DNA of 64,000 nucleotides from Gammaproteobacteria bacterium (GCA_036563665.1 DATCLY010000093.1:117702-181701); one strand, 5' to 3'; shown: positions 5,904 to 59,242, counted from the stretch's first letter. Notes: generated from the sequence alone by a model not told the origin. Numbers and translations: made by a program.

Positions 5904-5919
5904 CCCTGTCACCGAGCCG

Positions 5920-6375
5920 TCACGGGCCGCCCGGCCCGATGACGTAGAAGCCCTGCCGGTGCGCGGCCGCGGCGTGGCGCGGCGCACGGCCCAAGGCCTC
6001 GATCTCGAAGTGAAACGCGGCGAGCCCGTCCGCGCCCATGCTGAAGGCGCCCAGCGGCACCGGCGTCACGGCCACGAACGAGGCCGTGGCTTCGGTCTGC
6101 GCGGAGCCGTCGCCCGCGGGCATCGCGGGCAATGCGACGGGGCCGCTCGTGGAGAACGCCCGGCGGGCGAGGGCGATCTCGATGCCGGCCTCGGCCGCGT
6201 CGAACGCCGCCCGCTGGTACTGCGCGTTGCCGGCCATGGCCACCTCGTACGTGGCGGTGCTCGCGGCCGACACCGCGAGCGCCGTGAGCACGGCGAGCAG
6301 CACGAGCGCCACCACGAGCGCGGCGCCGTCTTGCACCGCTCGGCCGGCCCGTCGCATGCGGCCCGTCGCGCACAT
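5920..6375 (-). CDS. pilX: Type IV pilus minor pilin PilX
   Basis: The N-terminal domain is PilX-like (QDGAALVVALVLLAVLTALAVSAASTATYEVAMAGNAQYQRAAFDAAEAGIE). The start overlaps the pilW stop (ATGA). Confidence 0.8.
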   Translation of the reverse strand: MCATGRMRRAGRAVQDGAALVVALVLLAVLTALAVSAASTATYEVAMAGNAQYQRAAFDAAEAGIEIALARRAFSTSGPVALPAMPAGDGSAQTEATASFVAVTPVPLGAFSMGADGLAAFHFEIEALGRAPRHAAAAHRQGFYVIGPGGP

Positions 6376-7379: not shown

Positions 7380-7385
7380 GCGACG

Positions 7386-7847
7386 TTATCCTGCCGGCAC
7401 GCGCACGGCGGCGCGGTGCGTGAGCACGCCCGCGTTCGGCTCGTGCCAGCTCACGCGGATCGTGACCGTGCGCGGCGCGTCGCCGTCCACGCCGACGACG
7501 GCGTCGCCGTTCGGCAGCCGGGCGCGCACGAGCCGGCGCCACAGCAGCACGTCGTGCGCGGCCATCTCCGTGGGGGAGCACGAAGCGCCGCCGGTGCCGC
7601 AGCCCCGGTCGGCGCCCGCGCCGGCGTAGGCCGCCGCGCCGCGGCCGTTGGCCCGAATCCGGTCGGCGAGGTCCGCGGCGAGATCCACGGCCGCCGCGCG
7701 ATGCAGCGCGCTGCGGGCCGCGCCGAGCGCCTGCGCGTGCAGCGCGGCGATGCCGATCAGGCCCACGGAGACGACCACGAGCGCCACCAGCGCCTCCACG
7801 AGCCCGAAGCCGCGCGGGTCGCGTGCCGATCGGCCCATCACGGACAT
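7386..7847 (-). CDS. pilV: Type IV pilus minor pilin PilV
   Basis: A 153-aa protein with the prepilin motif RG|FGLVEALVALVVVSVGLIGIAAL. It overlaps the fimT 3' end by 10 nt. Confidence 0.85.
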   Translation of the reverse strand: MSVMGRSARDPRGFGLVEALVALVVVSVGLIGIAALHAQALGAARSALHRAAAVDLAADLADRIRANGRGAAAYAGAGADRGCGTGGASCSPTEMAAHDVLLWRRLVRARLPNGDAVVGVDGDAPRTVTIRVSWHEPNAGVLTHRAAVRVPAG

Positions 7848-8380
7848 GGCAGCGGCTCGCCGGGCGCGGGCTCGGCGACGCGCGGCCGGCCCGTGTAGCT
7901 CACGACCACGGCGCGGGCGTAACGGCCGCCCCGCGCGTCGCAGAAAGTGACGGTGCCGTTCGTGCTGCGCCGGGCGAACGGACGGAACTCGAACACCGCC
8001 CGGTTCGACGACACGGCGACTCCGCGCGCCGGCCGGTGGACGAAGAGCAGCGGCTCCGCCGCGGCGCGCGCAGGCGGGTGCGCGCCGTCTTCGTCGACGA
8101 ACACGATCCAGCCCGCCTCGTACCGCTCGCCGCAGGCCGTGAGGTCCGCCGAGCCGCAGAGCACCACGGTGCGGCCCCGCTTCGCGGCCTCGCTGCGCGC
8201 GAGCTGCACGGCCGTGACGAACGCGTCGACGTCCGCCGAGCGCCGCGCGTTGCGGAGCGCGTCCTGGAAGCTCGGGGCCGCGATGCCCACCACGATGCCG
8301 GCGACTGCCAGCGTGCAGAGCAGCTCCCAGAGCGTGAACCCGTGGGCTGGGCGAGCGGTCGAAGCAGGCGTAAGGTTCAT
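7838..8380 (-). CDS. fimT: GspH/FimT-family minor pilin (FimT/FimU)
   Basis: A 180-aa protein with the prepilin motif HG|FTLWELLCTLAVAGIVVGIAAPSF followed by a GspH-type region (DAFVTAVQLARSEAAKRG). It is the first gene of the operon. Confidence 0.8.
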   Translation of the reverse strand: MNLTPASTARPAHGFTLWELLCTLAVAGIVVGIAAPSFQDALRNARRSADVDAFVTAVQLARSEAAKRGRTVVLCGSADLTACGERYEAGWIVFVDEDGAHPPARAAAEPLLFVHRPARGVAVSSNRAVFEFRPFARRSTNGTVTFCDARGGRYARAVVVSYTGRPRVAEPAPGEPLPCP

Positions 8381-24835: not shown

Positions 24836-24967
24836 CGGCTCTAACCCCCGGCCGGCGCTCGAAATTCGTGACGCGCGCGCTTGTATTCCGGCTTACAAGT
24901 GTCAGAATGGCGCCGGTTTCGAGGCGGCCGCCCATGCAAGGCAAGGAGCGACCGGACAGTGGGGACT

Positions 24968-27634
24968 ATGGCTGAAGGCGAAGCGGCGAGCGACGCGGCG
25001 GTCTCCGCAGACGCGGAGGTCGGCACCCCCGTGCGCCGCGGCGGCGGCCGGCAGGCCGGTCTCGACCTGATCTGCACCAAGGTCGCCGTCGACTTCCAGA
25101 GCATGTCGGTCAACACGGCCGACGAGCGCATCAAGGAAGGCCTCCAGGCCCTCACGGACGTCTGCAAGGCCGACGCGGTGTTCGTCGCGCTCATGGACCG
25201 CGACGGGCATACGTTCGAGAAGGTCCACTGCGGCCGCTCGATGTTCTCGCTCTGCAACCCCGAGGTGCTCGTCGGCCGCTCGCTGGACGACTTCCCGTGG
25301 ATCAAGAGCCGTCTCGAGCACCTGCGGCTGCTCGAGATCCGCGACACCGCGAGGCCCCCCCTGGCGCAGCGCGCCGACGCCGAGCGGCTGGCGAGCCTGA
25401 ACGTCGCGTCGCTGTTGATCCTGGGCTTCAACATCCGCGGCCGCCTGGGCGGCGTCCTGGGCGTCGCGAGCGCATCCCCGGAGCCCGCGTGGGACGCGGA
25501 CCTCCACCTCGCCCTCAAGCTCGTGGGCGTGAGCTGCGCCACGGGGCTCGAGCGCATCCAGCTGCAGGAAGATCTCTTCACGGTGCAGGAGCGCGACCGC
25601 CTGGTCACGAACACGGCCAACGACGGGCTGTGGGACTACGACGTGCGCGAGAACTCGATGTATTTCTCGCCACGCTGGCGCGCCATGCTCGGCTACAAGG
25701 ACGACGACGAGATCCCCGAGTGGCGCCTGCTCGTGCACCCCGACGACCTCGCGCAGGTGCAGCAGGGCTTGCGGGACCACATCGAGGGCCGCACCGAGCT
25801 CTTCGAGAGCGTGCATCGGATGCGGCACGCGAACGGCGAGTGGCGCTGGATCCAGAGCCGCGTGCGCGGGCGCGTGGACGAGCACGGCAGGCTCAAGCGG
25901 CTCGTGGGCGTCGAAACCGACATCACCGAGCGCAAGCTCTACGAGGAGGCGCTGTTCCGCGAGAAGGAGAGCGCACAGATCACGCTGCAGTCGATCGGCG
26001 ACGGCGTGGTCACCACCGACGCGCAGGCGCTCGTGCAGTATCTGAATCCGGTGGCGTCGGAGCTCACGGGCTGGAAGCTCGACGACGCCGTGGGGCGCCC
26101 CATCGACGAGATCTTCCGCGGCTTCCACGAGGAGACCTGCGAGCCGGTCGAGAACCCCGTGGCGGTGGCCATGCGCCGCAACCGCCCCGTGAAGTCCGTG
26201 CGGCCCACGCTGCTGATCCGCCGCGACGGCAACGAGCTCTACATCGAGAGCACGGCCGCGCCCATCCGCGATCCGAACGGCAACGTCACGGGCGGCGTGC
26301 TCGTGTTCCACGACGTGTCGGAGTCGCGCGAGCTGAACCGCAGGCTCTCGTACGCGGCGAGCCACGACATCCTCACCGAGCTCGTGAACCGCCGCGAGTT
26401 CGAGAACCGGCTGCAGCGGGCGTTGAAGAGCGCCAAGGCGCGCGAGACGTCGTACGCGGTGCTGTACATCGACCTCGATCAGTTCAAGATCGTGAACGAC
26501 GCGTGCGGCCACAGCGCGGGCGACGCGCTGCTCAAGCAGATCGCGGCGCTGCTCAAGTCCAAGATCCGCTGGCGCGACACGCTGGCGCGGCTCGGCGGCG
26601 ACGAGTTCGGCGTGCTGCTCGAGAGCTGCACGATGGAAGAGGCCATGCGCACGGCCGAGAGCCTGCGCGACATCATCAACGAGTTCCGCTTCGTGTGGGA
26701 CGAGCGCACGTTCCGCCTCGGCGCGAGCATCGGCGTGGTGCCGATCACGCCCGCCACGGACGACGTGGCGGCGTTGCTGTCGGCGGCCGACAGCGCCTGC
26801 GCGGCGGCGAAGGAGGCGGGCCGGAACCGCGTTTACAGCTACCAGGAGAACGACATCGACCTGATGAAGCGGCGCAAGGAGATGCAGTGGGCCGCTCGCA
26901 TCAGCAACGCGCTCGAGGAGAACCGCTTCGAGCTCTTCCGCCAGACCATCCAGCCGCTGCAGCCCGGGCTCGACACGGGGGCTCACTACGAGCTGCTGCT
27001 GCGCATGCGTGACGAGCAGGGCATGCTCGTCTCGCCGGATCTGTTCATCGCCGCCGCGGAGCGCTACGGCCTGACGCCATCGATCGACCGGTGGGTGATC
27101 ACGCAGGCGTTCCGCTGGCTCGTGTCGGAGGCGGACGAGCGCGAGCGGCTCGCGCTCTGCTCGATCAACCTCTCGGGGCAGAGCCTCGCCGACGAGAAGT
27201 TCCTGCCATTCGTGATCGATCAGTTCCAGAAGAGCGGCTTGAGCGGCAGCTGCATCTGCTTCGAGATCACGGAGACCGCGGCCATCGCGAGCTACTCGCA
27301 GGCCAACCGCTTCATCCACGCGCTGAAGGAGCTCGGCTGCAAGTTCGCGCTCGACGACTTCGGCACGGGCCTCTCGTCGTTCGGCTACCTGAAGCACTTC
27401 CCCGTGGATTTCCTCAAGATCGACGGCAGCTTCGTCAAGGAGATCCTGCACGACCCCATCGACCGCGAGATGGTGCGCTCGATCAACGAGATCGGCCACC
27501 TGACCGGCAAGCAGACCATCGCCGAGTTCGCCGAGAACCAGGAGATCATCACGATGCTGCGCGGCATGGGCGTGGACTACGCCCAAGGGTACGGCGTCTC
27601 GGAGCCCAAGCGGCTGCTGCAAGCGGTGGCGTGA
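24968..27634 (+). CDS. Multidomain c-di-GMP protein: GAF-like N-terminus, two PAS/PAC, GGDEF and EAL
   Basis: It has a PAS/PAC region (HPDDL ... WRWIQSRV), the GGDEF motif RLGGDEFGVLL, and EAL motifs (HYELLLRM, FEITET, DDFGTG, LKIDGSFV, QGY). Confidence 0.9.
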   Translation: MAEGEAASDAAVSADAEVGTPVRRGGGRQAGLDLICTKVAVDFQSMSVNTADERIKEGLQALTDVCKADAVFVALMDRDGHTFEKVHCGRSMFSLCNPEVLVGRSLDDFPWIKSRLEHLRLLEIRDTARPPLAQRADAERLASLNVASLLILGFNIRGRLGGVLGVASASPEPAWDADLHLALKLVGVSCATGLERIQLQEDLFTVQERDRLVTNTANDGLWDYDVRENSMYFSPRWRAMLGYKDDDEIPEWRLLVHPDDLAQVQQGLRDHIEGRTELFESVHRMRHANGEWRWIQSRVRGRVDEHGRLKRLVGVETDITERKLYEEALFREKESAQITLQSIGDGVVTTDAQALVQYLNPVASELTGWKLDDAVGRPIDEIFRGFHEETCEPVENPVAVAMRRNRPVKSVRPTLLIRRDGNELYIESTAAPIRDPNGNVTGGVLVFHDVSESRELNRRLSYAASHDILTELVNRREFENRLQRALKSAKARETSYAVLYIDLDQFKIVNDACGHSAGDALLKQIAALLKSKIRWRDTLARLGGDEFGVLLESCTMEEAMRTAESLRDIINEFRFVWDERTFRLGASIGVVPITPATDDVAALLSAADSACAAAKEAGRNRVYSYQENDIDLMKRRKEMQWAARISNALEENRFELFRQTIQPLQPGLDTGAHYELLLRMRDEQGMLVSPDLFIAAAERYGLTPSIDRWVITQAFRWLVSEADERERLALCSINLSGQSLADEKFLPFVIDQFQKSGLSGSCICFEITETAAIASYSQANRFIHALKELGCKFALDDFGTGLSSFGYLKHFPVDFLKIDGSFVKEILHDPIDREMVRSINEIGHLTGKQTIAEFAENQEIITMLRGMGVDYAQGYGVSEPKRLLQAVA

Positions 27635-44862: not shown

Positions 44863-45546
44863 TCAGCTGCGTGCTCGAGCGCGCCGCGCCGGGCGCCCCG
44901 AGCGCGCGACGTCCAGCGTCGTCTTCGCCTTGTACTCGCAGAGGTCGCGGATCACGCACTCGGGGCACTTCGGCTTGCGTGCGACGCACACGTAGCGGCC
45001 GTGCAGGATGAGCCAGTGATGCGCGTTGCGCTTGAACTCGGGCGGCGTCGTGGCGTCGAGCTTGCGCTCCACTTCCTCGGGCGTGGCGCCGGGGGCGAGG
45101 CCGGTGCGGTTCGCCACGCGGAACACGTGCGTGTCCACGGCGATGGTCGGCTCGCCGAACGCGCTGTTCAGGATCACGTTGGCCGTCTTGCGCCCTACGC
45201 CGGGCAGTGCCTGTAACGCCTCCCGGTCGCGGGGCACCTCGCCGCCGTGGCGCTCCACGAGGATGCGGCACGTCTTGATGATGTTCTTCGCCTTGGTGTT
45301 GAAGAGCCCGATGGTCTGGATGTAGCGCTTCAGGCCCTCCTCGCCGAGGGCGAGCATGGCCGCCGGCGTGGGCGCGGCCTTGAACAGCGCCGGCGTCGCC
45401 TTGTTGACCCCCGCGTCGGTGGACTGTGCGGACAGGATCACGGCCACGAGCAGCTCGAACGGCGTGCTGAAGTGCAGCTCCGTCTTGGGGTCGGGGTTCG
45501 CGGCGGCCAGACGCTCGAAGATCCGCCGGCGCTTGGCGGCGTTCAC
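44863..45546 (-). CDS. nth: Endonuclease III
   Basis: It has HhH-GPD (LPGVGRKTANV) and the [4Fe-4S] cluster loop C-x6-C-x2-C-x5-C (CVARKPKCPECVIRDLC). The GTG start overlaps the rnfE stop. Confidence 0.95.
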   Translation of the reverse strand: MNAAKRRRIFERLAAANPDPKTELHFSTPFELLVAVILSAQSTDAGVNKATPALFKAAPTPAAMLALGEEGLKRYIQTIGLFNTKAKNIIKTCRILVERHGGEVPRDREALQALPGVGRKTANVILNSAFGEPTIAVDTHVFRVANRTGLAPGATPEEVERKLDATTPPEFKRNAHHWLILHGRYVCVARKPKCPECVIRDLCEYKAKTTLDVARSGRPARRARARS

Positions 45547-46280
45547 GAAGGGCGCCCCTGCGCGGCGCGCCGCTCGCGGACGCGCGCGGTGTGCTCCTGC
45601 AGCAGGTTGCGCAGCGCGAGCAGCGCCGCGAGGCCGAAGAACGCGCCCGGCGGCAGCACGGCTACGAGCATGCCGTCGAACGGCAGGCGCACCGCCCAGT
45701 CCTCGGCGCCCGGGCCGGCCAGCATGGCGGCGCCCGAGAGCAGCGTCCCGCGCCCGAGGATCTCGCGCAGCGCGCCCAAGGTGACCAGCACGAACAGGAA
45801 GCCCGCGCCGGCTGCCAGGCCCGCCACCGCCGCCTCGTGCACGGGGCGGCGGCTCGCGACGGTTTCGGCCTGCGCGAGCAGGGCGCAATTGGTGACGATG
45901 AGCGGGATGAAGAGCCCGAGCGTCTGATGCAGGTCGTCGAAGAACGCGTTCGTGAGCAGGTCGATGCAGGTCACGAGCGACGCGATGATCAGCACGAACA
46001 GCGGGATGCGCACGGCCGGCGCGATGGAGCCCTTGAGCAGCGAGATCAACGAGTTGGTCACGAGCAGCACGGCCGCCGTGGCGAGGCCGAGCGCGAAGCC
46101 GTTCACGACCGTCGTCGTGATCGCGAGTAAGGGGCAGAGCCCGAGCATCTGCACGAGCGCGGGATTGCTCTCCCAGAGGCCCGCGAGCAGCCGTTCGCGC
46201 TCGCCGGCCTGCTCGATCGGGGCGTCAAGGGGCGCCGCCGGGGGCGGGATTCGGCTCGGTTCGGCGCTCATCGGGCTCAA
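45543..46280 (-). CDS. rnfE: Rnf/Rsx electron transport complex subunit E
   Basis: The motifs GLWESNPALVQMLGLCPLLA and LGLFIPLIVTNC are typical of RnfE. Confidence 0.9.
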   Translation of the reverse strand: MSPMSAEPSRIPPPAAPLDAPIEQAGERERLLAGLWESNPALVQMLGLCPLLAITTTVVNGFALGLATAAVLLVTNSLISLLKGSIAPAVRIPLFVLIIASLVTCIDLLTNAFFDDLHQTLGLFIPLIVTNCALLAQAETVASRRPVHEAAVAGLAAGAGFLFVLVTLGALREILGRGTLLSGAAMLAGPGAEDWAVRLPFDGMLVAVLPPGAFFGLAALLALRNLLQEHTARVRERRAAQGRPS

Positions 46281-46926
46281 CGTCTTCCGGCATGGCGGGC
46301 GGCGCGTCGCGAGCGGCGGCGAAGAGCTCGTCGCGATGCGCCGCGAAGTATAGCAGCGTGCCGTGCACGGCCTCGACGACGGCGCGGGACGTGATCGTCG
46401 CGCCCGTGATCGAATCGAACGGGCCGCCTTCCTTGTCGAGCGCCCAGAGCTCCGGCTCCGTGAGCCGCTTGCCGTCGAACTGCGTGATCCACGGCGACTT
46501 GTCGATCTCGATGGCGTCGCCCAGGCCCGGCGTCTCGCGGTGCGAGACCACCCGCACGCCCGTGACGGTGCCGTCGGCGGAGAGGCCGATCAGCAGCCGG
46601 ATCGGCGCGTTGTAGCCGTCCGGCGCGCTGCTCGCGAACACCGCCGCCACGGGCCGGCCGCCTTCGAAGGCCACGAACACGTCCGTGCCGTCGTCGCTCC
46701 CGAGGAGCTCGCGATCGCGGACGGTCAGGCGAACGGTATCGAGGTCGCGGTCGCGCAGCGCCGGGTCGAGCACGCTCGCGAGCGTGCGCACGAGCCTCGC
46801 GCGCTCGTTGGCCGCGATGCGGTCCTTGCTGAGCTCGTAGCTCGCGCTCAGGAGCAGCGCGGCGGCCACGGCGACAACCCCCACCACGAGCACCGTCCGC
46901 ACCGCGCTACCCGCGCCGGTGGCCAT
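46225..46926 (-). CDS. rnfG: Rnf/Rsx complex subunit G (FMN-binding)
   Basis: It has an N-terminal TM and the FMN-attachment region (HRETPGLGD ... DSITGATITSRAV). Confidence 0.9.
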   Translation of the reverse strand: MATGAGSAVRTVLVVGVVAVAAALLLSASYELSKDRIAANERARLVRTLASVLDPALRDRDLDTVRLTVRDRELLGSDDGTDVFVAFEGGRPVAAVFASSAPDGYNAPIRLLIGLSADGTVTGVRVVSHRETPGLGDAIEIDKSPWITQFDGKRLTEPELWALDKEGGPFDSITGATITSRAVVEAVHGTLLYFAAHRDELFAAARDAPPAMPEDVEPDERRTEPNPAPGGAP

Positions 46927-47947
46927 AGATGTGCCCTCTCGTGTACCGGTCGATCAACGGCACCGCGGCGTTCATGAGCAGGACCGCGAACGCGAAGCCG
47001 TCGGGGTAGCCGCCCCACGTGCGGATGGCGTAGGTGAGCACCCCGATCGCGGCGCCGTAGACGAGCCTACCGCGATCGGTGGTGGCCGCCGAGACGGGGT
47101 CGGTGGCGATGAAGAAGGCGCCCAGGATCGTGGCGCCGCTGAAGAGGTGGAAGCTCGCGGGCGCGAAGCGCTCCGCGTCGATGAGGTTGAAGAGCAGGGC
47201 GGGGCCCAGGAGCCCCGCGAGCACGGCCACGGGGATGTGCCAGCGGATCGTGTTCGTGTAGAGCAGATACAGGCCGCCCAGGGCGATGAAGTTGTTGATC
47301 CACTCCCAGCCCCGGCCGCCGAAGTCCCCGAACAGCGAGCTCGTGCGGATCTGGGCGAAGCTGCTTCCTCCCCGGACGCCTTCCTTCACCAGGTCGAGCG
47401 GCGTGGCGCGCGTGAGCGCATCCACCGTGAGCTCGGGCGGCAGGATGCCGCCCAGCGCGTAGTTCAGGTGCTCGGGGAAGGTCAGGTAGCGGTAGTCGAT
47501 GTCGCCCATGCGCGGCGGGAGCCACTGCGTCATCTCCACGGGAAAGGACACGAGCAGCACCACGTAGCCCACCATCGCCGGGTTGAACACGTTGCGGCCG
47601 AGCCCCCCGTAGAGATGCTTGCCGAGCACCACCGCGGCCGCGGCGCCGAGCATCGGAATCCAGATCGGCACGAGCGGCGGGATGGCGAACACGAGCAGCG
47701 CCGCAGTGACGAGCGCGCTCCCATCGCGCAGCGCGCGGCGCGTGCCGCGGCCGCGCAGCCGCAGCACGGCGGCCTCGGCGAGCAGCGCCGTCACCGCCGC
47801 CGCGGCGAAATTGATCATGAGGCCCCAGCCGAAGAACCCGCTGTGCACGACGGCGGCCGGCAGCAGCGCCACGAGAACGCGGCGCATGACCTGCGGCACG
47901 CTCACGGCCGGCGGCGCGTGCGGGGCGGGAGCCGTCTCGAATTGCAT
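46907..47947 (-). CDS. rnfD: Rnf/Rsx complex subunit D
   Basis: A polytopic membrane protein with RnfD patterns (FNPAMVGYVVLL, FFIATDPVS). Confidence 0.9.
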   Translation of the reverse strand: MQFETAPAPHAPPAVSVPQVMRRVLVALLPAAVVHSGFFGWGLMINFAAAAVTALLAEAAVLRLRGRGTRRALRDGSALVTAALLVFAIPPLVPIWIPMLGAAAAVVLGKHLYGGLGRNVFNPAMVGYVVLLVSFPVEMTQWLPPRMGDIDYRYLTFPEHLNYALGGILPPELTVDALTRATPLDLVKEGVRGGSSFAQIRTSSLFGDFGGRGWEWINNFIALGGLYLLYTNTIRWHIPVAVLAGLLGPALLFNLIDAERFAPASFHLFSGATILGAFFIATDPVSAATTDRGRLVYGAAIGVLTYAIRTWGGYPDGFAFAVLLMNAAVPLIDRYTRGHIYGHRRG

Positions 47948-47950
47948 CGG

Positions 47951-49483
47951 CTAGTCGGGTTCCCGTCCCTGCTCCCGGCGTTCGCGGGCCCGGCGCACGG
48001 CCTCCTCGATGGCCTTCCTGCCGCTCTCGGGGTCGTGGCGCACGGCTTCCTTGAGGGCCTGGCGGATCTCGGCCTCGCGCCGCTCCGCGTCCGCGCGGCG
48101 CTGCTCGCGCCGCTTCACGCGCGCTTCCGTCTCGGCCGCGAAGCGCTCGCGCTCCTCGTGCAGCGCGTACTCGCGTTTGGCCACGCGAAAGCGCTCCGTG
48201 AGCCGGATCTGGCTCGGGCAGACCACGTCGCAGCAGCCGCATTCGATGCAATCGAAGAGCCCGAGCGCGTCCAGGTCCTCCATGTCGTGCGCCTCGGCGG
48301 CGGACAGGAGCTCCTGGGGCAGGAGGCCGGCCGGGCACGCGGACGCGCAGTCGCCGCAGCGAATGCAGGGCCATTCGTCCTCGTCGGCCCGCACCTCGTC
48401 CGCGCCGGCGGCGAAGATGCAGTTCACCGCCTTGGTCACGGGCAGATCATCGTCCGGCACGGCGTAGCCCATCATGCTGCCGCCGACCACGAGCCGCGCC
48501 ACGTCGTCGGTGTAGCCGCCGCAGAGCGCCACGAGCTCCGCGAACGGCGTGCCGAGCGGCGCGAGCACGTTCTGCGGCTGCCGCACGCCCTTGCCCGTCA
48601 CGGTGACCACTCGGGCGATCAGCGGCTCCCCGGCGTCGAGCCAGCGGGCGAGCGCGTACGCGGTCCCCACGTTCTGGCACACGTAGCCGATGTCGATGGG
48701 GTAGCCGCCGCTCGGCACCTCCTCGCCGGTCAGGAGCTCGATGAGCTGCCGCTCGCCGCCGGCGGGGTAGACCGTGCGCACTTCCGCGAGCCGCAGCCGC
48801 GGATCGCCCACGGCGCGCGCGGCCGCGGCCAGGGCCTCGATGGCGCGAGGCTTGTCGCGCTCGACGGCCATGATGCAGAGCGGCGCGCCGAGCAGGTCGG
48901 CCATGGCGAGCGCGCCGGCGACGATCTCCGGGGCCGCCTCGCGCATGAGCATGTCGTCGCAGCTGATGTAGGGCTCGCACTCCGCGCCGTTCACGATGAG
49001 CGCCTTGCACTCGCCGCTCACGGCGAGCTTGTCGGCCGTGGGGAACACGGCGCCGCCGAGCCCCGCGAGGCCGCCGTCGCGCAGCACGCGGAGGCGCTCC
49101 TCCCGCGTCGCCGGCCAGCCCGGCGGCGCGAGGTCGGCCGGCTGGTCGAGGCCGTCCGCCTCGACCACCACGCAGAGCGACCGTTCGAGCCCTTTGCCTC
49201 CCGGCACCGTCCGTTCCTCGATGGCGCGCACGCGCCCCGACGTCGACGCGTGCACGGCGGCGGACGGCGGCGACCCGGGCGCCGCCACGAGCTGCCCCTT
49301 CCGCACCTCGTCGCCCACGGCGACCACGGGCACGGCGGGGGAGCCGCGGTGCTGCTTCAACGCGAGCACCACCTGTCTGGGCACGAAGCCGCGGCGAATG
49401 CCGGTGGCGGTGGATTGCGTCTTGTTCGCGAGCAGGCGGATGCCGCCCGTCAGCTTGCGTTCGAGGGTGTACTCAAGCTCCAC
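47951..49483 (-). CDS. rnfC: Rnf/Rsx complex subunit C
   Basis: It has an N-terminal GGI...NK..S motif and two ferredoxin-type clusters (CIRCGDCASACP, CIECGCCDVVCP). The start is set at GTG 49483, overlapping the rnfB 3' end. Confidence 0.85.
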   Translation of the reverse strand: MELEYTLERKLTGGIRLLANKTQSTATGIRRGFVPRQVVLALKQHRGSPAVPVVAVGDEVRKGQLVAAPGSPPSAAVHASTSGRVRAIEERTVPGGKGLERSLCVVVEADGLDQPADLAPPGWPATREERLRVLRDGGLAGLGGAVFPTADKLAVSGECKALIVNGAECEPYISCDDMLMREAAPEIVAGALAMADLLGAPLCIMAVERDKPRAIEALAAAARAVGDPRLRLAEVRTVYPAGGERQLIELLTGEEVPSGGYPIDIGYVCQNVGTAYALARWLDAGEPLIARVVTVTGKGVRQPQNVLAPLGTPFAELVALCGGYTDDVARLVVGGSMMGYAVPDDDLPVTKAVNCIFAAGADEVRADEDEWPCIRCGDCASACPAGLLPQELLSAAEAHDMEDLDALGLFDCIECGCCDVVCPSQIRLTERFRVAKREYALHEERERFAAETEARVKRREQRRADAERREAEIRQALKEAVRHDPESGRKAIEEAVRRARERREQGREPD

Positions 49484-49970
49484 GCGGCACCATCGAGATG
49501 CAGTCCACCGGGCAAGGCGGCAGGCAGAGCTCGCACCCCGTGCAGTACGCACGGATCACGCCGTGCAGCGCCTGCGGAATGCCCACGATCGCGTCCACGG
49601 GGCACGCCCGAGCGCACAGGTTGCAGCCGATGCAGGCGTCCTCGTCGATCTCGGCGACGCGCTCGAGGCTCGCGGTGCCGCGGCTCGTGTCGAGGGGCAG
49701 CGGCTCGCGGCCGAGCAGCTCGGCGAGGCGCCGCACCGTCTGCTCGCCGCCCGGCGGGCACAGGTTGATGTCGGCCGCGCCGCTCGCGACCGCGGCCGCG
49801 TACGGCCGGCAGCCCGGGTAGCCGCATTGCGCGCACTGGATGCGCGGCAGCAGGCGCTCGATGCGCTCGGTGAGCTCGTCCCCGCGCCGCGGCAGCAGCC
49901 GCTCGGCGGACACGAGGAGCGCGGCCAGCGCGACAGCGAGCCCTCCGAGGATGACGGCCGCGGACAACAT
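49473..49970 (-). CDS. rnfB: Rnf/Rsx complex subunit B
   Basis: It has an N-terminal anchor, a CAQCGYPGC cluster, and 2x[4Fe-4S] motifs (CIGCNLCARACP, CTGCELCLPPCP). Confidence 0.9.
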   Translation of the reverse strand: MLSAAVILGGLAVALAALLVSAERLLPRRGDELTERIERLLPRIQCAQCGYPGCRPYAAAVASGAADINLCPPGGEQTVRRLAELLGREPLPLDTSRGTASLERVAEIDEDACIGCNLCARACPVDAIVGIPQALHGVIRAYCTGCELCLPPCPVDCISMVPRGA

Positions 49971-50551
49971 CAGAGCCGCGCGAAGCCCGCGAACCCGAGG
50001 AAGGCGAGCGACATGATCCCCGCGGTCACGAGTGCGATGGCGCTGCCGCGGAACGGCCGCGGCACGTCCGCGCGGTCCACGCGCCGCCGCAGCCCCGCGA
50101 GCAGCACGAGCACGAGCGCGAAGCCGAGCGCGGCGCCCGCGCCGTAGAAGAGCGCCGCCACGAAGCTGCGGCTCGCGGCCGAGTTGAGCAGCGCCACGCC
50201 GAGCACCGCGCAGTTGCTCGCGATGAGCGGGATGTAGAGGCCGAGCAGCCGGTGCAGCAGCGGCGAGAACCGCCGGATCACGAGCTCGGTGAGCTGCACG
50301 GCCCCGCCGATGATGAGGATGAACGCGACGAGCTTGAGGTACTCGAGCTCGAAGGGCGCGAGCAGGAAGCGCTCCGCGAGATAGGCGAGGCCCGAGGCGG
50401 TGGTGAGCACGAGCCCGGTGGCGAGCCCCATCCCAACCGCGCCCTCCACGCGGCGCGACGCGCCCATGAACGGGCAGAGGCCGAGGAACTGCACGAGCAC
50501 GAAGTTGTTGACGAGCGCAGCTCCGATGACGATGAGCATGAGCTCGGTCAC
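49970..50551 (-). CDS. rnfA: Rnf/Rsx complex subunit A (start GTG 50551 or ATG 50539)
   Basis: The motifs LVNNFVLVQFLGLCPFMG and LGLYIPLIASNCAVLG are typical of RnfA. The stop overlaps the rnfB start (ATGA). Confidence 0.9.
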   Translation of the reverse strand: MTELMLIVIGAALVNNFVLVQFLGLCPFMGASRRVEGAVGMGLATGLVLTTASGLAYLAERFLLAPFELEYLKLVAFILIIGGAVQLTELVIRRFSPLLHRLLGLYIPLIASNCAVLGVALLNSAASRSFVAALFYGAGAALGFALVLVLLAGLRRRVDRADVPRPFRGSAIALVTAGIMSLAFLGFAGFARL

Positions 50552-52906: not shown

Positions 52907-53344
52907 ATGGCGAAGCGCAAGGCCAAGGCGGGAGGCGGCGCGCCCCGGGCCAAGCGGGGCGGCCGCGGTCGCGGCCAGGTCGGCCGGCGGGGCGCCGCGG
53001 CGCGCGCCGGATCGCGCTGGTCCGCGGAGGTCACGCGCCGCAGCGACGCGCTCGACCTCGAGCCGGGCGTGTTCACGTGGGACGATCCCAAGCGGATCGC
53101 CGCTTCCCTCAAGCGCTCGGCGGAAGCGAGCGAGCGGCGCAAGGCGCCGCCCTTCCAGTCCGCGATGTCGATGCTCAACCTCTACGTGAACCGCGCCGGC
53201 CGAAACCTGCCGGAGGAGCGACGGCAGGTGCTCGAGCGCGCGAAGGACGAGCTGCGCAAGCTCTTCGGCCGCGAGCCCGCCGGGCGCAGCGGCGGAACCG
53301 CCGCGCGCCGCCGGGGCGCGGGGCGGGCATCCACGGGTCGCTGA
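52907..53344 (+). CDS. DUF3175-like protein with Lys/Arg/Gly-rich N-terminus
   Basis: It has the pattern WS.EVT..SDALDLE.GVF...DP..IA.SLK.SAE.S.RRK..PF.SAMSMLN.Y.NRAG..L. Confidence 0.6.
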   Translation: MAKRKAKAGGGAPRAKRGGRGRGQVGRRGAAARAGSRWSAEVTRRSDALDLEPGVFTWDDPKRIAASLKRSAEASERRKAPPFQSAMSMLNLYVNRAGRNLPEERRQVLERAKDELRKLFGREPAGRSGGTAARRRGAGRASTGR

Positions 53345-53425: not shown

Positions 53426-54196
53426 TCAGCGGCGAAGCTCGGAGAGGAGCGAGCGCGCCGCGCCTCCCAGCAACAGCGTGTCCACGCCCGCGACTACGAG
53501 CGTGTAGCCGCGGTCGACATACGGGCGTACGGCGTCCGCGCTCACGCCGAAATAGCCGAGCGCGACGCCCGCGGCGAGACAGGTTTGGGTGACGTGCTCG
53601 ATGGCCTCGACCACGGCGGGGTGGTCGACGTCGCCCATTCGCCCGAGGCTCGCCGAGAGGTCGTAGGGCCCCACGAGCACGGCGTCGACGCCTGCGACGC
53701 GCACGATGGCCTCGATGTTCTCCACGGCGAGCGCGTGCTCGGCCTGCACGACGACGCAGGTTCGCTCGTTCGCGGCCCGGAGATACTCGTCGAAGCCGAA
53801 TCCATAGCCGTGCGCGCGAGCGAGCCCCACGCCGCGCGCGCCGTCCGGCGCGTAGCGCGCGAAGCGGACGACGGCCGCCGCCTGCTCGGCCGTGTTCACC
53901 TGCGGCACGATGACGCCGGCCGCACCCAGATCGAGCGCCCGCTTGATCGGCAGCTCGGCCGCCTCCGGCACGCGCACGAGGCACGGGACGCGGTCGCCGA
54001 CCGCTTGCAGGATGGCGAGGAGCTCGCGCGTGCCGAGCGGCCCGTGCTCGGCGTCCAGGAACAGCCAGTCGAAGCCCAGGCGGGCTAGGACCTCGGCGAC
54101 GGCGGGCGTGGGCAGCGTGACCATGGTGCCGAAGAGCCGCTCACGGCGGAGCAGCCGCGCTCGAAAGGAGGTGGCGTCGTTCGTCTGGTCGCTCAT
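53426..54196 (-). CDS. HpcH/HpaI-family aldolase
   Basis: It has the TIM-barrel aldolase pattern (GFDWLFLDAEHGP, GVIVPQV.TAE.A, QAE..A.EN...I, DAVLVGPYDLS). Confidence 0.8.
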   Translation of the reverse strand: MSDQTNDATSFRARLLRRERLFGTMVTLPTPAVAEVLARLGFDWLFLDAEHGPLGTRELLAILQAVGDRVPCLVRVPEAAELPIKRALDLGAAGVIVPQVNTAEQAAAVVRFARYAPDGARGVGLARAHGYGFGFDEYLRAANERTCVVVQAEHALAVENIEAIVRVAGVDAVLVGPYDLSASLGRMGDVDHPAVVEAIEHVTQTCLAAGVALGYFGVSADAVRPYVDRGYTLVVAGVDTLLLGGAARSLLSELRR

Positions 54197-54344: not shown

Positions 54345-55406
54345 CTAGGTGGCGTCCTTGTACTGCTCGAACTTCGACTTGTCGAAGGCCTGCAGGTAGG
54401 CCTCGCGTCCCGAGATCACGCCCGCGTCGAGCAGGCGCTTCAACGAGCCGTCCATGGTGCACATGCCGGCGTGCGCGCTCGACTGCATGACGTTCTCGAG
54501 CTGCTCGAGCTTGCCCTGGCGGATCAGGTTCGCGGCCGCGGGCGTGTTCATGAGGATCTCGAGCGCCGCCACCCGGCCCGAGCCGTCCTTCTTCTTCACG
54601 AGCTGCTGGGAGATCACGCCGCGCAGCGAGGTGGACAGCATGTTGCGCACGTGGTCCTGCTTGTCGGCGGGGAAGATGTTCACCACGCGGTCGATCGTGG
54701 CGGCGGCGCCGTTCGTGTGCAGCGTGCCCATCACCAGCACGCCCATCTCCGCGGCCGTCATGGCGATGCTCATGGTCTCGAGGTCGCGCAGCTCGCCCAC
54801 GAGGATGACGTCGGGGTCCTCGCGCAACGCCGAGTGCAGGGCGTCCGCGAAGGAGGCGCAGTGCACGCCCACCTCGCGCTGGCTGATGAGGCACATCTTG
54901 CGCTCGTGCACGAACTCGATGGGGTCCTCGATCGTGAGGATGTGCCCTTTGAGCCGGCTGTTGATGGCGTCGATCATCGCCGCGAGCGTGGTGGACTTGC
55001 CGGAGCCCGTCTTGCCCGTCACGAGGATCAGGCCGCGCGTCGCGGTGCTGAGCTCGTGCAGCGCCTTCGGCATCTTGAGCTCCTCGAGCGTCAGCGCCTT
55101 CGAAGGAATGCTGCGGAACACGGCGCCGATGCCGTTCAGATGCCGCAGCACGTTTACGCGGAAGCGGGCGACGTCGGGAATGGTGTAGGCGAAGTCCGCC
55201 GAGTCGTGCCTCTCGAACTGCCGGCGCGACTGCTCGGTCATGATCTCGAACAGCGCGCTCGCGAGCTCCTCCGGGTCGAGCCGGTTGTTGTCGAGCGTGA
55301 TCAGGTCGCCGTGCAGCCGCATGCGGGGCGGGTCGCCGGCGATGACGTGCAGGTCCGACCCCTTGCGGAGGTACATGCTGCGCAGGAAGTCGTCGATCAT
55401 CGACAC
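54345..55406 (-). CDS. PilT-family hexameric ATPase, divergent paralog (second of tandem pair)
   Basis: It has Walker A GKTGSGKST, Walker B DPDVILVGELRD and TIEDPIEF. The His-box region reads AEMGVLVMGTLHT where PilT/PilU have AETGHL..GTLHT. The C-terminal motif is TPAAANLIRQGK rather than AIRNLIRE. Confidence 0.8.
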   Translation of the reverse strand: MSMIDDFLRSMYLRKGSDLHVIAGDPPRMRLHGDLITLDNNRLDPEELASALFEIMTEQSRRQFERHDSADFAYTIPDVARFRVNVLRHLNGIGAVFRSIPSKALTLEELKMPKALHELSTATRGLILVTGKTGSGKSTTLAAMIDAINSRLKGHILTIEDPIEFVHERKMCLISQREVGVHCASFADALHSALREDPDVILVGELRDLETMSIAMTAAEMGVLVMGTLHTNGAAATIDRVVNIFPADKQDHVRNMLSTSLRGVISQQLVKKKDGSGRVAALEILMNTPAAANLIRQGKLEQLENVMQSSAHAGMCTMDGSLKRLLDAGVISGREAYLQAFDKSKFEQYKDAT

Positions 55407-55419
55407 GGCGGCGGCGCCC

Positions 55420-56508
55420 TCAAGCGAGCTCCGCGCTCGGCAGCACCGTGGTGTCCGTGACGAAGCGCTCGAACTTCTTGCGATCGGTCGCGTAGCGATA
55501 GGCGTCGTCCGGGTCCACCAGCCGCGCCGCGATCGCGTCGAGCAGCGCCTGGTCCATCGTTTGCATTCCCTGGTCCTTGCCGGTCTGCAGCTGCGCGTGG
55601 ATCTGGTGCGTCTGCTCGGTCATGATGAGCTTCGCGATCGCGCGGTTCATCACCATGATCTCCACGATGGCGCGGCGGCCGCGGCCGTCCGGCGTCTTCA
55701 CGAGGTTCTGCGTGACCACGGCGTGCAGGCTGTGCGCGAGGAAGCTCTTGGTCTGCTCGCGCTGCTCCGCGGGCAGCGCGTCGATGATGCGGTCCACCGA
55801 CTTCACGGCGCTCGTGGTGTGCAACGTGCCGAGCACGAGGTGGCCGGTTTCCGCGGCCGTCATGGCCATGCTGATGGTCTCGGCGTCGCGCAGCTCGCCC
55901 ACGAGGATCACGTCCGGATCCTCGCGCAGCGCCGCCCGGACGCCCTCCGCGAAGCTCGGGATGTGCGTGCCGAGCTCGCGCTGGATGACCTGGCAGCGCT
56001 TGCTCGGGTGCACGAACTCGATCGGATCCTCGAGGCTGATGATGTTGAGGCTCCGCGTGGTGTTCAGGTGATCGATCATCGCGGCGAGCGTGGTGGACTT
56101 GCCCGTGCCCGTGGACCCGGTGACCAGCACCATGCCCTGATGCAGGTCGCAGAAGCTCTGGATCACCGGCGGCAGGCCGAGCGACTCGAGGCTCGGAATG
56201 TGCATCGGGATGTTGCGGAACGTGGCCCCGATGCCGGTGGCCTTGCGGAACACGTTCACGCGGAAGCGCCCGCCGTCGGAGCTCACGTAGGAGAAGTCGA
56301 GGTCCTTGCCGGAGCGGAACCGCTCGCGCTGTGACTCCGTGAGAATCTCGTCGATGTAGCCCTCGAGCTCCGTGTCGCGCAGATCCCGGAACTTGATGGG
56401 CATGAGGTCGCCGTGCAGCCGCAGCATCGGCGGGATGCCGACGGCGAGGTGGATGTCGGAGCAGCCCTGGGCGAGCCCGAGCTTGAGGAACGCGTCTATG
56501 CGGGCCAT
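55420..56508 (-). CDS. PilT-family hexameric ATPase (first of tandem pair)
   Basis: It has Walker A GSTGTGKST, Walker B DPDVILVGELRD and His box AETGHLVLGTLHT. The C-terminal motif is NRAIAKLIMTEQ in place of AIRNLIRE. It starts 7 nt after the kinase stop. Confidence 0.85.
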   Translation of the reverse strand: MARIDAFLKLGLAQGCSDIHLAVGIPPMLRLHGDLMPIKFRDLRDTELEGYIDEILTESQRERFRSGKDLDFSYVSSDGGRFRVNVFRKATGIGATFRNIPMHIPSLESLGLPPVIQSFCDLHQGMVLVTGSTGTGKSTTLAAMIDHLNTTRSLNIISLEDPIEFVHPSKRCQVIQRELGTHIPSFAEGVRAALREDPDVILVGELRDAETISMAMTAAETGHLVLGTLHTTSAVKSVDRIIDALPAEQREQTKSFLAHSLHAVVTQNLVKTPDGRGRRAIVEIMVMNRAIAKLIMTEQTHQIHAQLQTGKDQGMQTMDQALLDAIAARLVDPDDAYRYATDRKKFERFVTDTTVLPSAELA

Positions 56509-56515
56509 GGCGGCG

Positions 56516-58978
56516 TCAGGACAGCGACTTGGAGGCGTTGAGCAGCGCCTCGCGCAGCTCGTCCATCGAAGCGTAGCGCTTGTTCTTGTCCACCATCATG
56601 GTCTTGTGCACGACGTTCGCGAGCTCGAGCGGCACCTTCGGGTTGAGCTCGTGCAGCGGCTGCGCCTTGCCCTGCACGTGCTGGTACATCACGGACATAT
56701 GGTCGCCGCGGCTGTAGGGCGGCGTGCCGGCCAGCATCTCGTACATGATCACCCCGAGGCTGTAGATGTCGGCACGCTCGTCCACCTTCTTGCCGAGGAT
56801 CTGCTCCGGTGCCATGTACTTCGGCGAGCCGATCACGTAGCCCGTTTTGGTGAGCTGCGTGTCGCCGCTCTTCGCGGCAGCCGCCACGCCGAAGTCCACG
56901 ATCTTCAGGAGCCCCGCGTCGTTGATGAGGATGTTCGCCGGCTTCAGGTCGCGGTGAATGATGCCCTGCTGGTGGGCGTTCTGCATGCCGAGGCAGATGT
57001 CCACCGCGTAGCCCACGGCCTTGGCGGGCCGCATCGGCTTCTCGTTGGCGATCTCCTGGGCCAGCGTGTGCGACGGGAAATACTCCATGGAGATGGCGTA
57101 GCCGCCGCCCACGTAGAGGAAGTCGTAGATGCGAATGACGTTCTTGTGCGTGATGCGTCGGGAGTAGCGCAGCTCGTGCACGAACCGCTTCATCATCTCC
57201 TCGTCCGACGCCACGTTCGGGTTCAAGAACTTGAGGATGAGGCGCTCCTCGACCACCTTGTCCTCGACCAGCACCACGGTGCCGAACGCGCCCTTGCCGA
57301 TCTTCTGGATGAACTCGTATCGGCCGTCGATGAGGTCGCCGGGCTTGAGCGCGTTGATATCGAGCGCCTCGCGAGCTTTCGGCACGGGCGCGAAGTCCGC
57401 GCCATCGATGAGCAGCGTGCGCGCCGTGCCGGTGGCGGCCGAGGGCGCGGGCGACTGCACGGTCGGCGGCGGGGACGACAGGGTCGGCGCGGGCGTGGAC
57501 GTCGGCGTGGGCGACGCCGCGTAGGTGGTGCTCGTGAACCGGCCGCTCTGCGAGACGCGGCCGTCGAGCTTCTGCAGCGCCCGTGACGCGGCGCGGGCCA
57601 CCGTCTCGTCGGCCGTGGCCGCGATCTGCTGGATGTAGGGGCGCACGCTCTCGGCGTGCTGCTCGCCGGCGAGCTGCGCGATGGCAGTCACGGCCGCGAC
57701 CTTGATCTCTTTCTCGGGGCGCTGCAGGTAGGGCAGAACGCGCTCGAGGTGGCGATGGTCGCCGAGCTTGCTGAGCGCGTGGAGCGCCACGGGCACCGAG
57801 CGATCGTTGCGCTCGAGCATCTCGAGGATGGCGGGCAGCGCCTTGGGGTCGCCGATCTCGGCGAGCGCGTCCGCGGCCCGCTCGCTGACCCACCAGTCCT
57901 TGTCGCGGGTGGCCTCGATGAGCTTGTCCACGGCGCGCTTGTCGCGGCAGACGTTCAGGATCTCGATAGCGGCGCGGCGGATGTTCTCGTCCTGATCCTT
58001 GATGAGCTCGAGCACGGCGTCGACCACGCGCGGCCCGCCGATGCGAGCGAGCGCATCCGCGGCCCGCGAGCGCACCCACCAGTCCTCGTCCGCCACCGCC
58101 TCGAGCAGATACTTCACGTGCGCGGTGGTGCCGATGGCGTTCAGCACCTCCACGGCCGCGCGGCGCGAGAACTCGTTCTCGTCCTTGAGCGCCGGGACGA
58201 GGTGCTTCACCGTCTCCGGGTCGTTCAAGGCGATGATCACGTCCACCGCCTTGTTCATCACCTCGAGGTCCGGGTCGAGGAGCAGGCGGGCCACGACCGC
58301 GACGTCGGCTTTCCGCTTCGAGCGCGCGATGCCGCTGAGCGCCGCCTGGCGCACGAGCTTGTTGCCGTCCTTGAGCTGCTCCTGCAGCGTGCTGCTCACC
58401 TCCGGCAGGTCGAACGCCGAGAGCACGTTGATCAAGTGCATCTTGACGATCGGGTCCTTGCCGTCGAGGCGCGTGAGCAGATCGGGCACGAGATCGGGCG
58501 TGATGATGTCCTCGATGAGCTTGAACACGGCCGCCTTCTCGCTCGGCTGCAGGTGGTAGATCTGCGCGAGCAGCTGGCGCACGTTCAGGCGATCCTTGTG
58601 GGCCGTGAGCACCTCGATGATGGCGGGCTTCGAGTACTCGTCTTCGGCGAGAAGATCCACGAGCCGGTTGACGTTGTAGCGCTTGCTGGTGGACAGCGCC
58701 CAGGCCGTGCCTTTCACCGTGCGCGAGTCGGAATCGGCGAGCCCGCGGGCGATGATGGGCAGCGTCTTGTCGGTGGCGAGGCTCGCGAGCAGCTCGACGT
58801 ATTCGATGGTCTGCCGCTTGTCGGCGGAGGCGAGCGCCTCGAGGATCTTGGGAATGGCGCCGTCACCGAGCTTGCGGAGCTTCTCGAGGGCTTTCCTGGC
58901 GGCGGGCGACGTAGGGTCGGCTTCGGCGCGGATCTGAGAGATCAGCCGATCGGCTTGCAGTGACGTCAGGAAATTCAT
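56516..58978 (-). CDS. Cytoplasmic HEAT-repeat protein fused to a C-terminal Hanks-type Ser/Thr protein kinase
   Basis: An 820-aa protein. About 500 aa are PBS-lyase/HEAT-like repeats (e.g. DEDWWVRSRAADALARIGGPRVV, DKDWWVSERAADALAEIGDPKAL), followed by an S/T/P-rich linker. The kinase has GKGAFGTV, LILK, HRDLKPANIL, DFG and APE. No TM segment is present. Confidence 0.85.
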   Translation of the reverse strand: MNFLTSLQADRLISQIRAEADPTSPAARKALEKLRKLGDGAIPKILEALASADKRQTIEYVELLASLATDKTLPIIARGLADSDSRTVKGTAWALSTSKRYNVNRLVDLLAEDEYSKPAIIEVLTAHKDRLNVRQLLAQIYHLQPSEKAAVFKLIEDIITPDLVPDLLTRLDGKDPIVKMHLINVLSAFDLPEVSSTLQEQLKDGNKLVRQAALSGIARSKRKADVAVVARLLLDPDLEVMNKAVDVIIALNDPETVKHLVPALKDENEFSRRAAVEVLNAIGTTAHVKYLLEAVADEDWWVRSRAADALARIGGPRVVDAVLELIKDQDENIRRAAIEILNVCRDKRAVDKLIEATRDKDWWVSERAADALAEIGDPKALPAILEMLERNDRSVPVALHALSKLGDHRHLERVLPYLQRPEKEIKVAAVTAIAQLAGEQHAESVRPYIQQIAATADETVARAASRALQKLDGRVSQSGRFTSTTYAASPTPTSTPAPTLSSPPPTVQSPAPSAATGTARTLLIDGADFAPVPKAREALDINALKPGDLIDGRYEFIQKIGKGAFGTVVLVEDKVVEERLILKFLNPNVASDEEMMKRFVHELRYSRRITHKNVIRIYDFLYVGGGYAISMEYFPSHTLAQEIANEKPMRPAKAVGYAVDICLGMQNAHQQGIIHRDLKPANILINDAGLLKIVDFGVAAAAKSGDTQLTKTGYVIGSPKYMAPEQILGKKVDERADIYSLGVIMYEMLAGTPPYSRGDHMSVMYQHVQGKAQPLHELNPKVPLELANVVHKTMMVDKNKRYASMDELREALLNASKSLS

Positions 58979-59242
58979 CGCTCCGATTACGGCCCTGGCG
59001 GTCAGCCCTTGTGCCCAATACGCAACCGAATGGAGCCCCCACGAAAGGCTCTGGCCGGGACCCCCGTGCGCTGGGATCGAACATAATGGCCGGCCGGTCG
59101 CGGGCAATTATGCCATACGCTTTTTGCGACAATGCAACGCAGATCACAGGTTTGCGGCTCTTTGCCGCGGCGTGCGCGCGGCGCGGGCGCCACGTCACGT
59201 TAGGTTACAATCGTGGCCTTGCTGGGCCGACCCGAGCGCCGC

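Follow-up and report, generated by a model that had tools for sequence, protein, structure and literature searches.

In a 64,000-nucleotide stretch of DNA from Gammaproteobacteria bacterium (GCA_036563665.1, DATCLY010000093.1:117702-181701), which is part of a 241.6-kb metagenome-assembled contig and is hereafter called the window, three adjacent minus-strand genes at positions 54345-58978 encode a protein in which HEAT repeats are fused to a Hanks-type Ser/Thr kinase, and two ATPases of the PilT family, here named ATP1 and ATP2. The trio keeps its order and its chromosomal position in gammaproteobacterial relatives, and a kinase and ATPase pair of the same kind recur together with further signalling genes in FCB candidate phyla. 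The module is an undescribed variant assembled from known parts, and the function proposed for it is tentative. The explanation towards which we lean is that it represents the Steroidobacterales-type form of an ancient and undescribed signalling and motor system, in which a HEAT-repeat Hanks kinase is paired with two PilT-family ATPases under the control of threonine phosphorylation, probably as an accessory to pilus retraction.

A conserved block of one kinase and two ATPase genes

An initial annotation, made from the window sequence alone, had described a three-gene minus-strand block with gaps of 7 nt (kinase-ATP1) and 13 nt (ATP1-ATP2). This is confirmed here, as are the domains and all the motifs that it quoted. 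The European Nucleotide Archive (ENA) gene calls for the contig are 820, 362 and 351 amino acids (aa). Since the ENA call and the lengths of orthologues (794-843 aa) agree with the kinase frame read from its ATG (MNFLTS...), the 820-aa start was accepted, and a longer TTG-initiated frame reaching 59107 was disfavoured on the same evidence. ATP1 has 362 aa, and ATP2 has 353 aa when read from a GTG, the ENA caller beginning two codons later at an ATG. No terminator-like or sigma-70-like site was found on the minus strand inside the block, an Rfam scan of it returned no credible family or cis-regulatory RNA, and its composition matches that of the surrounding window. The window sequence has no obvious Shine-Dalgarno before ATP1, which is consistent with translational coupling. 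As a sigma-70 consensus was not found upstream of the kinase gene, the operon promoter is only presumed to lie in the intergenic region shared with the divergent gene mrp (Table 1).

To compare this block with those of other bacteria, the kinase was scanned against one genome per GTDB species. At least 557 species carried a relative, and the best 80 loci, which belonged to Steroidobacteraceae, Woeseiaceae and unclassified Gammaproteobacteria, were retrieved and compared. Cultured carriers are Povalibacter uvarum, Steroidobacter flavus, Peristeroidobacter agariperforans, P. soli and Lentisalinibacter orientalis. In every one of the 80 loci with a long enough contig, the gene order was dcd - mrp(-) / kinase(+) - ATP1(+) - ATP2(+) - metG(+), and such constancy between mrp and metG shows that the module is a vertically inherited core-genome feature of an order-level clade. 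The median identity to the window proteins was 75% for ATP1, 68% for ATP2, 61% for Mrp, 58% for the kinase and 55% for MetG. ATP1, with identities of 72-91% in the relatives, was thus more conserved than both MetG and Mrp, and exceeded MetG in 59 of 60 loci. Judged from these identities, purifying selection is stronger on the module than on the adjacent aminoacyl-tRNA synthetase gene metG. The spacing between ATP1 and ATP2 was nearly always -4 to +25 nt among the relatives, and the kinase gene preceded ATP1 by 20 nt or less in the lineage of the window (about 19 genomes). The functional linkage that had been suggested for the three genes gains from this conservation of neighbourhood, which extends to all seven of the distant loci described below.

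The kinase protein combines two well-defined parts. Pfam HEAT_2 was matched in seven stretches (E 5e-49), together with HEAT and HEAT_PBS, and Pkinase at residues 554-806 (E 2e-53, 182 bits against a cutoff of 31.7). AlphaFold2 gave residues 1-471 as a confident all-helical solenoid, with a predicted local distance difference test (pLDDT) score of about 80-90, followed by a disordered segment. Therefore, the HEAT region of about 500 aa proposed in the initial annotation stands as to its repeats and has to be shortened to about 470 aa as to its extent. The kinase domain was modelled from a shallow alignment with low confidence, and no reading is drawn from its model. In Foldseek, the solenoid resembled alphaRep, the PP2A A subunit and karyopherins, and the match of the C-terminal domain was PknB. 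In the orthologue alignment, the best-conserved HEAT stretch is aa 241-400, and the linker varies in length; a Pro-rich linker is likewise found in the kinase of one of the distant loci (L084).

The catalytic motifs are those of a complete Hanks kinase, as had been claimed. The window protein shows GKGAFGTV, the K in LILKF, HRDLKPANIL, DFG and APE, and the G-loop, K583, E602, HRDLKPAN, DFG, the activation loop DTQLTKTGYVIGSPKYMAPE, APE and D737 are invariant across the 80 orthologues, in agreement with the residues expected for this family (among them the VAIK-Lys, the alphaC-Glu, the Asp of subdomain IX and the Arg of subdomain XI). On these motifs the kinase is apparently active. Assignment to the PASTA kinases PknB/Stk1 (NF033483) was considered and rejected, because the match reached 278 bits of the 450 required and covered the kinase domain only, and the protein has no transmembrane segment and no PASTA repeats, carrying N-terminal HEAT repeats instead.

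Relationship of ATP1 and ATP2 to PilT and PilU

Both ATPases matched Pfam T2SSE and the NCBIfam model TIGR01420 for the PilT/PilU family, with 427.7 bits for ATP1 and 452.3 bits for ATP2 against a cutoff of 319, and they align with each other without gaps at 46% identity. Their identity to Pseudomonas aeruginosa PilT (PaPilT) is 47% (ATP1) and 54% (ATP2). For comparison, published values are 67% between PaPilT and NgPilT, 54% between PaPilT and MxPilT, and 52-54% for canonical PilTs across phyla (PMC5065972), and thus neither ATPase has orthologue-level similarity to proteobacterial PilT. The AIRNLIRE signature is absent from both, the corresponding stretch being AIAKLIMTEQ in ATP1 (clade consensus AIGKLIMTDQ) and AAANLIRQGK in ATP2 (clade consensus AVANLIRQGK). 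Compared with the solved PilU 9n32, ATP1 and ATP2 scored 254 and 288 bits, respectively, versus 326 and 354 bits with PaPilT (3jvu), and by these scores neither is PilU and both are nearer to PilT. In a neighbor-joining (NJ) tree, each formed a clade of its own with 100% bootstrap, away from PaPilT. These results bear out the earlier view of the ATPases as non-canonical and identify ATP1 and ATP2, as far as their sequences can tell, as deep paralogues of PilT.

The orthologue alignments disclosed a difference between the two. ATP1 shows no variation in Walker A (GSTGTGKS), the Asp box, Walker B or the His box (AAETGHLVLGTLHT). ATP2 has intact Walker A, Asp and Walker B boxes, and a His box that reads AAEMG[VI]LVMGTLHT; the orthologues of both ATPases keep Walker A, the Asp box, Walker B and GTLHT unchanged. 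At the column of PaPilT H222, histidine is present in 77/77 ATP1 proteins, in 7/7 of their distant counterparts (A1, see below) and in 23 of 33 other PilT-like representatives, versus I/V in 66 of 68 ATP2 proteins and I/V/A in all seven of the distant A2. The loss of this conserved His-box histidine in ATP2 suggests a catalytic/regulatory division of labour, and may bear on PilT-PilU pairs generally.

An exhaustive search with ATP1 over 1.84 billion cluster representatives returned its own orthologue group at 72% identity or more, two outliers (P0130, 54%, and P0135, 51%) and a remainder on a plateau of 45-50%. P0135 was not accepted as a member of the module, since it is a lone ATPase behind an MshEN gene with no kinase, and its locus marks the edge of the module. 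At two loci (L089, 6296-8759, and L090, 5893-8356) an ATPase of the P0135 type is directly preceded by a stand-alone MshEN protein of 418 aa, which has the N-domain of MshE that binds cyclic di-GMP (c-di-GMP) and no ATPase domain; the two proteins may form a split c-di-GMP receptor/PilT pair. The top bit scores belonged to fused PilT-PilT proteins (P0121-P0131), which were rejected as orthologous fusions, being 27-46% identical to ATP1/ATP2. These are natural fusions of 708-1024 aa with two PilT-like ATPase domains, one half of which lacks a clean Walker A in some of them, and they document the covalent pairing of PilT-like domains elsewhere.

The arrangement in FCB candidate phyla and the surroundings of the module

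The outlier P0130 proved to be a member of a large family, from which seven loci, each on a separate contig, were sampled. Only L084 bears a taxon label by locus (the complete Candidatus Latescibacterota chromosome CP070763.1), the other phylum names being those of kinase homologues. The kinase family of this distant branch comprises at least 1,926 clusters, with named members that include Candidatus Latescibacterota, Candidatus Eisenbacteria and Candidatus Krumholzibacteria. All seven loci presented, in this arrangement, an FHA protein (180-208 aa, with a C-terminal hydrophobic helix as membrane anchor), a HEAT-kinase (786-809 aa) and two ATPases, A1 (367-379 aa) and A2 (356-357 aa), with junctions that overlap or abut (kinase/A1, -26 to +11 nt; A1/A2, -4 nt in five of the seven). 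In addition, five loci encode, at a distance of 13-1521 nt downstream, a protein of about 730-756 aa that is orthologous among them and whose N-terminal membrane region is combined with an HD-GYP-type HD domain (HHEQPDGQGYP) and with a PP2C phosphatase. In two of these (L088 and L091) a separate HD_5 protein is encoded between A2 and the HD-GYP/PP2C gene. The domain fusion hints at a cross-talk between c-di-GMP turnover and threonine dephosphorylation. Moreover, the presence of a phospho-threonine reader of the FHA type in 7/7 and of a PP2C phosphatase in 5/7 of the distant loci gives independent support to the idea of phospho-regulation put forward in the initial annotation.

The window proteins can be matched one by one with those of the distant branch. 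ATP1 is 54-56% identical to A1 versus 46-48% to A2, ATP2 is 48-52% identical to A2 versus 46-48% to A1, and the kinases align from end to end, HEAT part included, at 35-38% identity. In the NJ tree, ATP1 and A1, each 100% supported, are sisters save for one long-branch intruder. ATP1 and A1 share 12 diagnostic derived positions (for example, TGTGKS, LE[DE]P and the C-terminal RFVTD tail), and ATP2 and A2 share the loss of the H222-equivalent histidine and D242N. These shared derived residues imply that a pair made of a canonical and a His-degenerate member is older than the split of the two lineages. On this comparison, the gammaproteobacterial form would be a trimmed version without linked FHA and PP2C, and the module is broader and richer than the window alone suggests.

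The features of the module are collected in Table 1. Between ATP2 and metG, the window contains an HpcH/HpaI aldolase gene (53426-54196, minus strand) and a DUF3175 gene (52907-53344, plus strand). A tblastn analysis of the 80 related loci found neither of them, ATP2 and metG being usually adjacent there, and the two genes are probably a lineage-specific insertion. Directly downstream of metG, the minus strand carries a complete rnf/rsx cluster for electron transport (RnfA, B, C, D, G, E) and, after it, the gene for endonuclease III (45420-50000). An 891-aa multi-PAS GGDEF-EAL protein, of the c-di-GMP turnover type, is encoded beside proC at 24959-27634 (plus strand), about 27 kb from the module.

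Table 1. Coordinates of the module in the window and of the phosphatase gene in the distant loci
Feature	Coordinates	Strand	Evidence or remark
Kinase/mrp divergent intergenic region, presumed operon promoter	58979..59212	.	mrp(-)/kinase(+) divergence kept in all loci reaching that far
Kinase open reading frame	56516..58978	-	
Kinase HEAT/PBS-lyase-type solenoid, aa 1-471	57566..58978	-	Pfam HEAT_2 x7, HEAT, HEAT_PBS; AlphaFold2; Foldseek
Kinase S/T/P-rich disordered linker, about aa 472-545	57344..57565	-	pLDDT <50 at 475-539; gap-rich among orthologues
Hanks-type Ser/Thr kinase domain, about aa 546-820, and stop codon	56516..57343	-	Pfam Pkinase 554-806
ATP1, first PilT-family ATPase, 362 aa, all catalytic boxes intact	55420..56508	-	T2SSE, TIGR01420
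ATP2, second PilT-family ATPase, 353 (351) aa, first His-box histidine replaced by V/I	54345..55406	-	T2SSE, TIGR01420
HD-GYP/PP2C gene of distant loci	L086 11391-13601; L087 10215-12440; L088 11734-14004; L091 11725-13938; L092 10194-12374		

Possible roles of the module and its likeness to known systems

The host carries genes for type IV pili. Those noticed earlier at 2-8 kb in the window, and regarded as far from the ATPases, are a true and complete type IVa (T4a) minor-pilin operon (2183-8380, minus strand), about 46 kb from the module. It is located directly downstream of ileS-lspA, a neighbourhood also found in P. aeruginosa, and comprises gspH/fimU-like, pilV-like, pilW, pilX, a gene for a 131-aa unknown, pilY1 (968 aa) and pilE/ComP_DUS. 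This minor-pilin/PilY1 operon shows that the organism makes T4a pili.

We propose that the kinase would autophosphorylate on the invariant threonines of its activation loop and that its HEAT solenoid would dock the ATPase pair or another partner. Phosphorylation of threonines in the ATPases, in the linker of the kinase or in an FHA partner could then switch the assembly of the motor pair, its recruitment to the membrane or its activity, and a PP2C phosphatase would reset the switch. Such a logic would be that of the PpkA/PppA/Fha1 pathway, by analogy, with different proteins. In the organism of the window, the likeliest output would be a conditional, accessory control of pilus retraction, or of a related inner-membrane filament machine, beside canonical PilT and PilU. 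The module would thus most likely assist, under certain conditions, a pilus machine with canonical motors of its own, although we put this role forward weakly. It is favoured because PilT and PilU are both reported for Woeseiaceae and ATP1 and ATP2 are both PilT-like. Gene content, conservation, linkage, intact catalytic motifs and the status of the ATPases as paralogues are established by the data, and the target of phosphorylation, the binding partner of the solenoid and the substrate of the motor are, in this proposal, inferred ones.

Several results weigh against this explanation. That the kinase transfers phosphate to the ATPases, or is physically linked to them, is something that we purely infer. 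Linked FHA and PP2C partners were not found by tblastn in the window or in the 80 Steroidobacterales loci, barring one chance match. ATP2 and A2, each 100% supported, were monophyletic in just 33% of the NJ bootstraps, and the window ATP2 is slightly nearer to PaPilT (54%) than to A2; in view of this weak support, the orthology of ATP2 and A2 rests on gene position, reciprocal best identity and derived residues. Finally, ATP1 is separated from the kinase gene by 66-200 nt in most Steroidobacteraceae and Woeseiaceae. In one Steroidobacteraceae subclade (L024, L026, L029, L030, L031, L040, L043 and L046), the kinase-ATP1 spacer contains a conserved element, TTGACG-N-CTCACGTTTAT...CTCGAAAATCCAA..GCTTACGGGTA, also described as a TTGACG...TTTAT box, which resembles an internal promoter with a conserved leader that would serve the two ATPase genes. 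Where the spacer is long, the ATPases can probably be expressed without the kinase. Hence, the co-expression that had been deduced from the tight spacing holds for the window, where no internal terminator or promoter was found, and for the FCB lineage, and strict co-transcription is a trait of these lineages that is not universal.

It could be argued that ATP1 and ATP2 are the own PilT and PilU of this clade, fast-diverged and acting as the sole T4a retraction motors, with the kinase as a lineage-specific regulator. The T4a minor-pilin/PilY1 operon of the host would fit with this, the best match of ATP2 is a solved PilT, and a tandem pilT-pilU is the usual gammaproteobacterial arrangement. In a genomic study of Woeseiaceae, PilT and PilU are reported for all metagenome-assembled genomes, without an indication of which genes they are (PMC12175321). 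However, since ATP1 and ATP2 are both PilT-like rather than PilU-like, the PilU reported there is probably a further gene. In addition, the same kinase-A1-A2 order and the same derived residues occur in FCB candidate phyla, which means that the pair predates Steroidobacterales and did not arise by a local divergence of pilT and pilU. The lack of AIRNLIRE and a distance to PaPilT like that of cross-phylum PilTs (PMC5065972) argue in the same direction, and the module never adjoins pilB/C/M-Q or pilins. We consequently regard this alternative as unlikely.

That pilus-machinery genes do not adjoin the module in any of the 80 related or seven distant loci may also be read in another way, namely, that the module is unrelated to pili and constitutes a repurposed hexameric ATPase engine, controlled by threonine phosphorylation, which serves some other process at the membrane, for example, a step of secretion, the remodelling of the envelope or a switch linked to c-di-GMP. 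In the distant loci, all partners are signalling proteins (the membrane-anchored FHA protein and HD-GYP/PP2C), and the missing AIRNLIRE is a motif that Aukema and colleagues are said to have found in 2005 to be needed for the retraction function of PilT in P. aeruginosa. Similarly, roles outside pili have been suggested for other PilT paralogues, such as PilT1 and PilT2 of Geobacter (PMC5065972). Nevertheless, the studied PilT-family ATPases that score over the TIGR01420 cutoff are motors of pili or type IV filaments, and in Myxococcus xanthus, where MXAN_6705/6706 form a tandem kept across Myxococcales, PilT paralogues give partial motility defects (PMC13584747). Considering also that the host clearly has T4a pili and that no alternative substrate machinery is encoded nearby, a role foreign to pili seems doubtful. 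An anti-phage defence or mobile island, in which kinase and ATPases would be together by chance, is highly improbable. The kinase does match PADLOC kinase models (PD-T4-6, the mad6 of MADS and the PglW of BREX), but these matches are confined to residues 540-819, that is, to the generic kinase domain, and the ATPases have no meaningful defence match. Moreover, the fixed mrp-metG position in the 80 related loci, an evolution slower than that of metG and a composition that matches that of the window are those of a core-genomic locus, and the anti-phage reading was rejected.

The accessory, phosphorylation-controlled motor that we favour can be extended, more tentatively, to the whole set of loci. 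HEAT-kinase and ATP1/ATP2, ancestrally with the membrane-anchored FHA protein and HD-GYP/PP2C, might constitute an unrecognised multi-phylum system in which reversible threonine phosphorylation, possibly cross-wired with c-di-GMP through HD-GYP, controls a heteromeric PilT-like motor. This motor might have a substrate other than the classical T4a pilus, or it might be a conditional engine dedicated to retraction and separate from PilT/PilU. The ATPases of the PilT family rank with the strongest molecular motors known, and many bacteria have unexplained extra copies of them. Here, two PilT paralogues are pinned to a dedicated Ser/Thr kinase in at least 557 species of Gammaproteobacteria that are abundant in soil and sediment and in a branch of FCB candidate phyla, and the module probably marks an unstudied phosphorylation-controlled molecular motor. 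To our knowledge, the control of a PilT-type motor by eukaryote-like phospho-signalling has not been previously established, and the module offers a concrete and testable case. It is, besides, experimentally reachable, since cultured hosts exist (Povalibacter uvarum, Steroidobacter flavus, Peristeroidobacter spp. and Lentisalinibacter orientalis).

The initial annotation knew of no characterised system with this architecture, and our full-text literature searches likewise retrieved no description of a module made of a HEAT-kinase and a PilT pair. The closest arrangements are the PilT/PilU tandems of P. aeruginosa, Vibrio cholerae and M. xanthus, which also consist of two adjacent TIGR01420 genes with the motifs of hexameric secretion ATPases and a functionally distinct second member; in V. 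cholerae, PilU is described as PilT-dependent (PMC6762196). In contrast to these tandems, here AIRNLIRE is absent, both members are nearer to PilT, the neighbour is a HEAT-kinase instead of pilus genes, and the second member lacks the first His-box histidine. Geobacter (PilT1-3) and M. xanthus (MXAN_0415 and MXAN_6705/6706) likewise have extra PilT-like ATPases encoded outside pil clusters; their Walker, Asp and His boxes are intact, and their roles are either unclear or auxiliary. In this comparison, made by description, no linkage to a kinase is reported for them, and the available portions of PMC13584747, PMC5065972 and PMC6762196, in each of which the word 'kinase' appears once, report no linked kinase for PilT paralogues.

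With regard to the kinase, CpcE/F, NblB and scaffolds of the PP2A A-subunit type share its type of repeat (HEAT_PBS, HEAT_2) and its elongated solenoid fold. The window protein differs from CpcE/F and NblB in carrying a kinase fused to the repeats and in coming from a gammaproteobacterium that is not photosynthetic, and identity as a phycobilin lyase or NblB was rejected because the scores are far under the equivalog cutoffs (NblB, 89 against 300; CpcE, 68 against 330; CpcF, 49 against 220). As to the signalling logic, it is known that in the H1 type VI secretion system (H1-T6SS) of P. aeruginosa the PpkA kinase, the PppA phosphatase of the PP2C type and Fha1 are encoded with the ATPase of the nanomachine and gate its assembly. 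The distant form of the module has the same trio of kinase, FHA and PP2C around its ATPases. T6SS genes were not found in the window or in the compared loci, and membership in a threonine phosphorylation pathway of the T6SS type was rejected, since FHA and PP2C are absent from the window and the 80 related loci; the likeness is one of analogy. PpkA, moreover, is located in the membrane, has a periplasmic sensor and lacks a HEAT scaffold, and the ATPase of the H1-T6SS is ClpV, which is not PilT-like.

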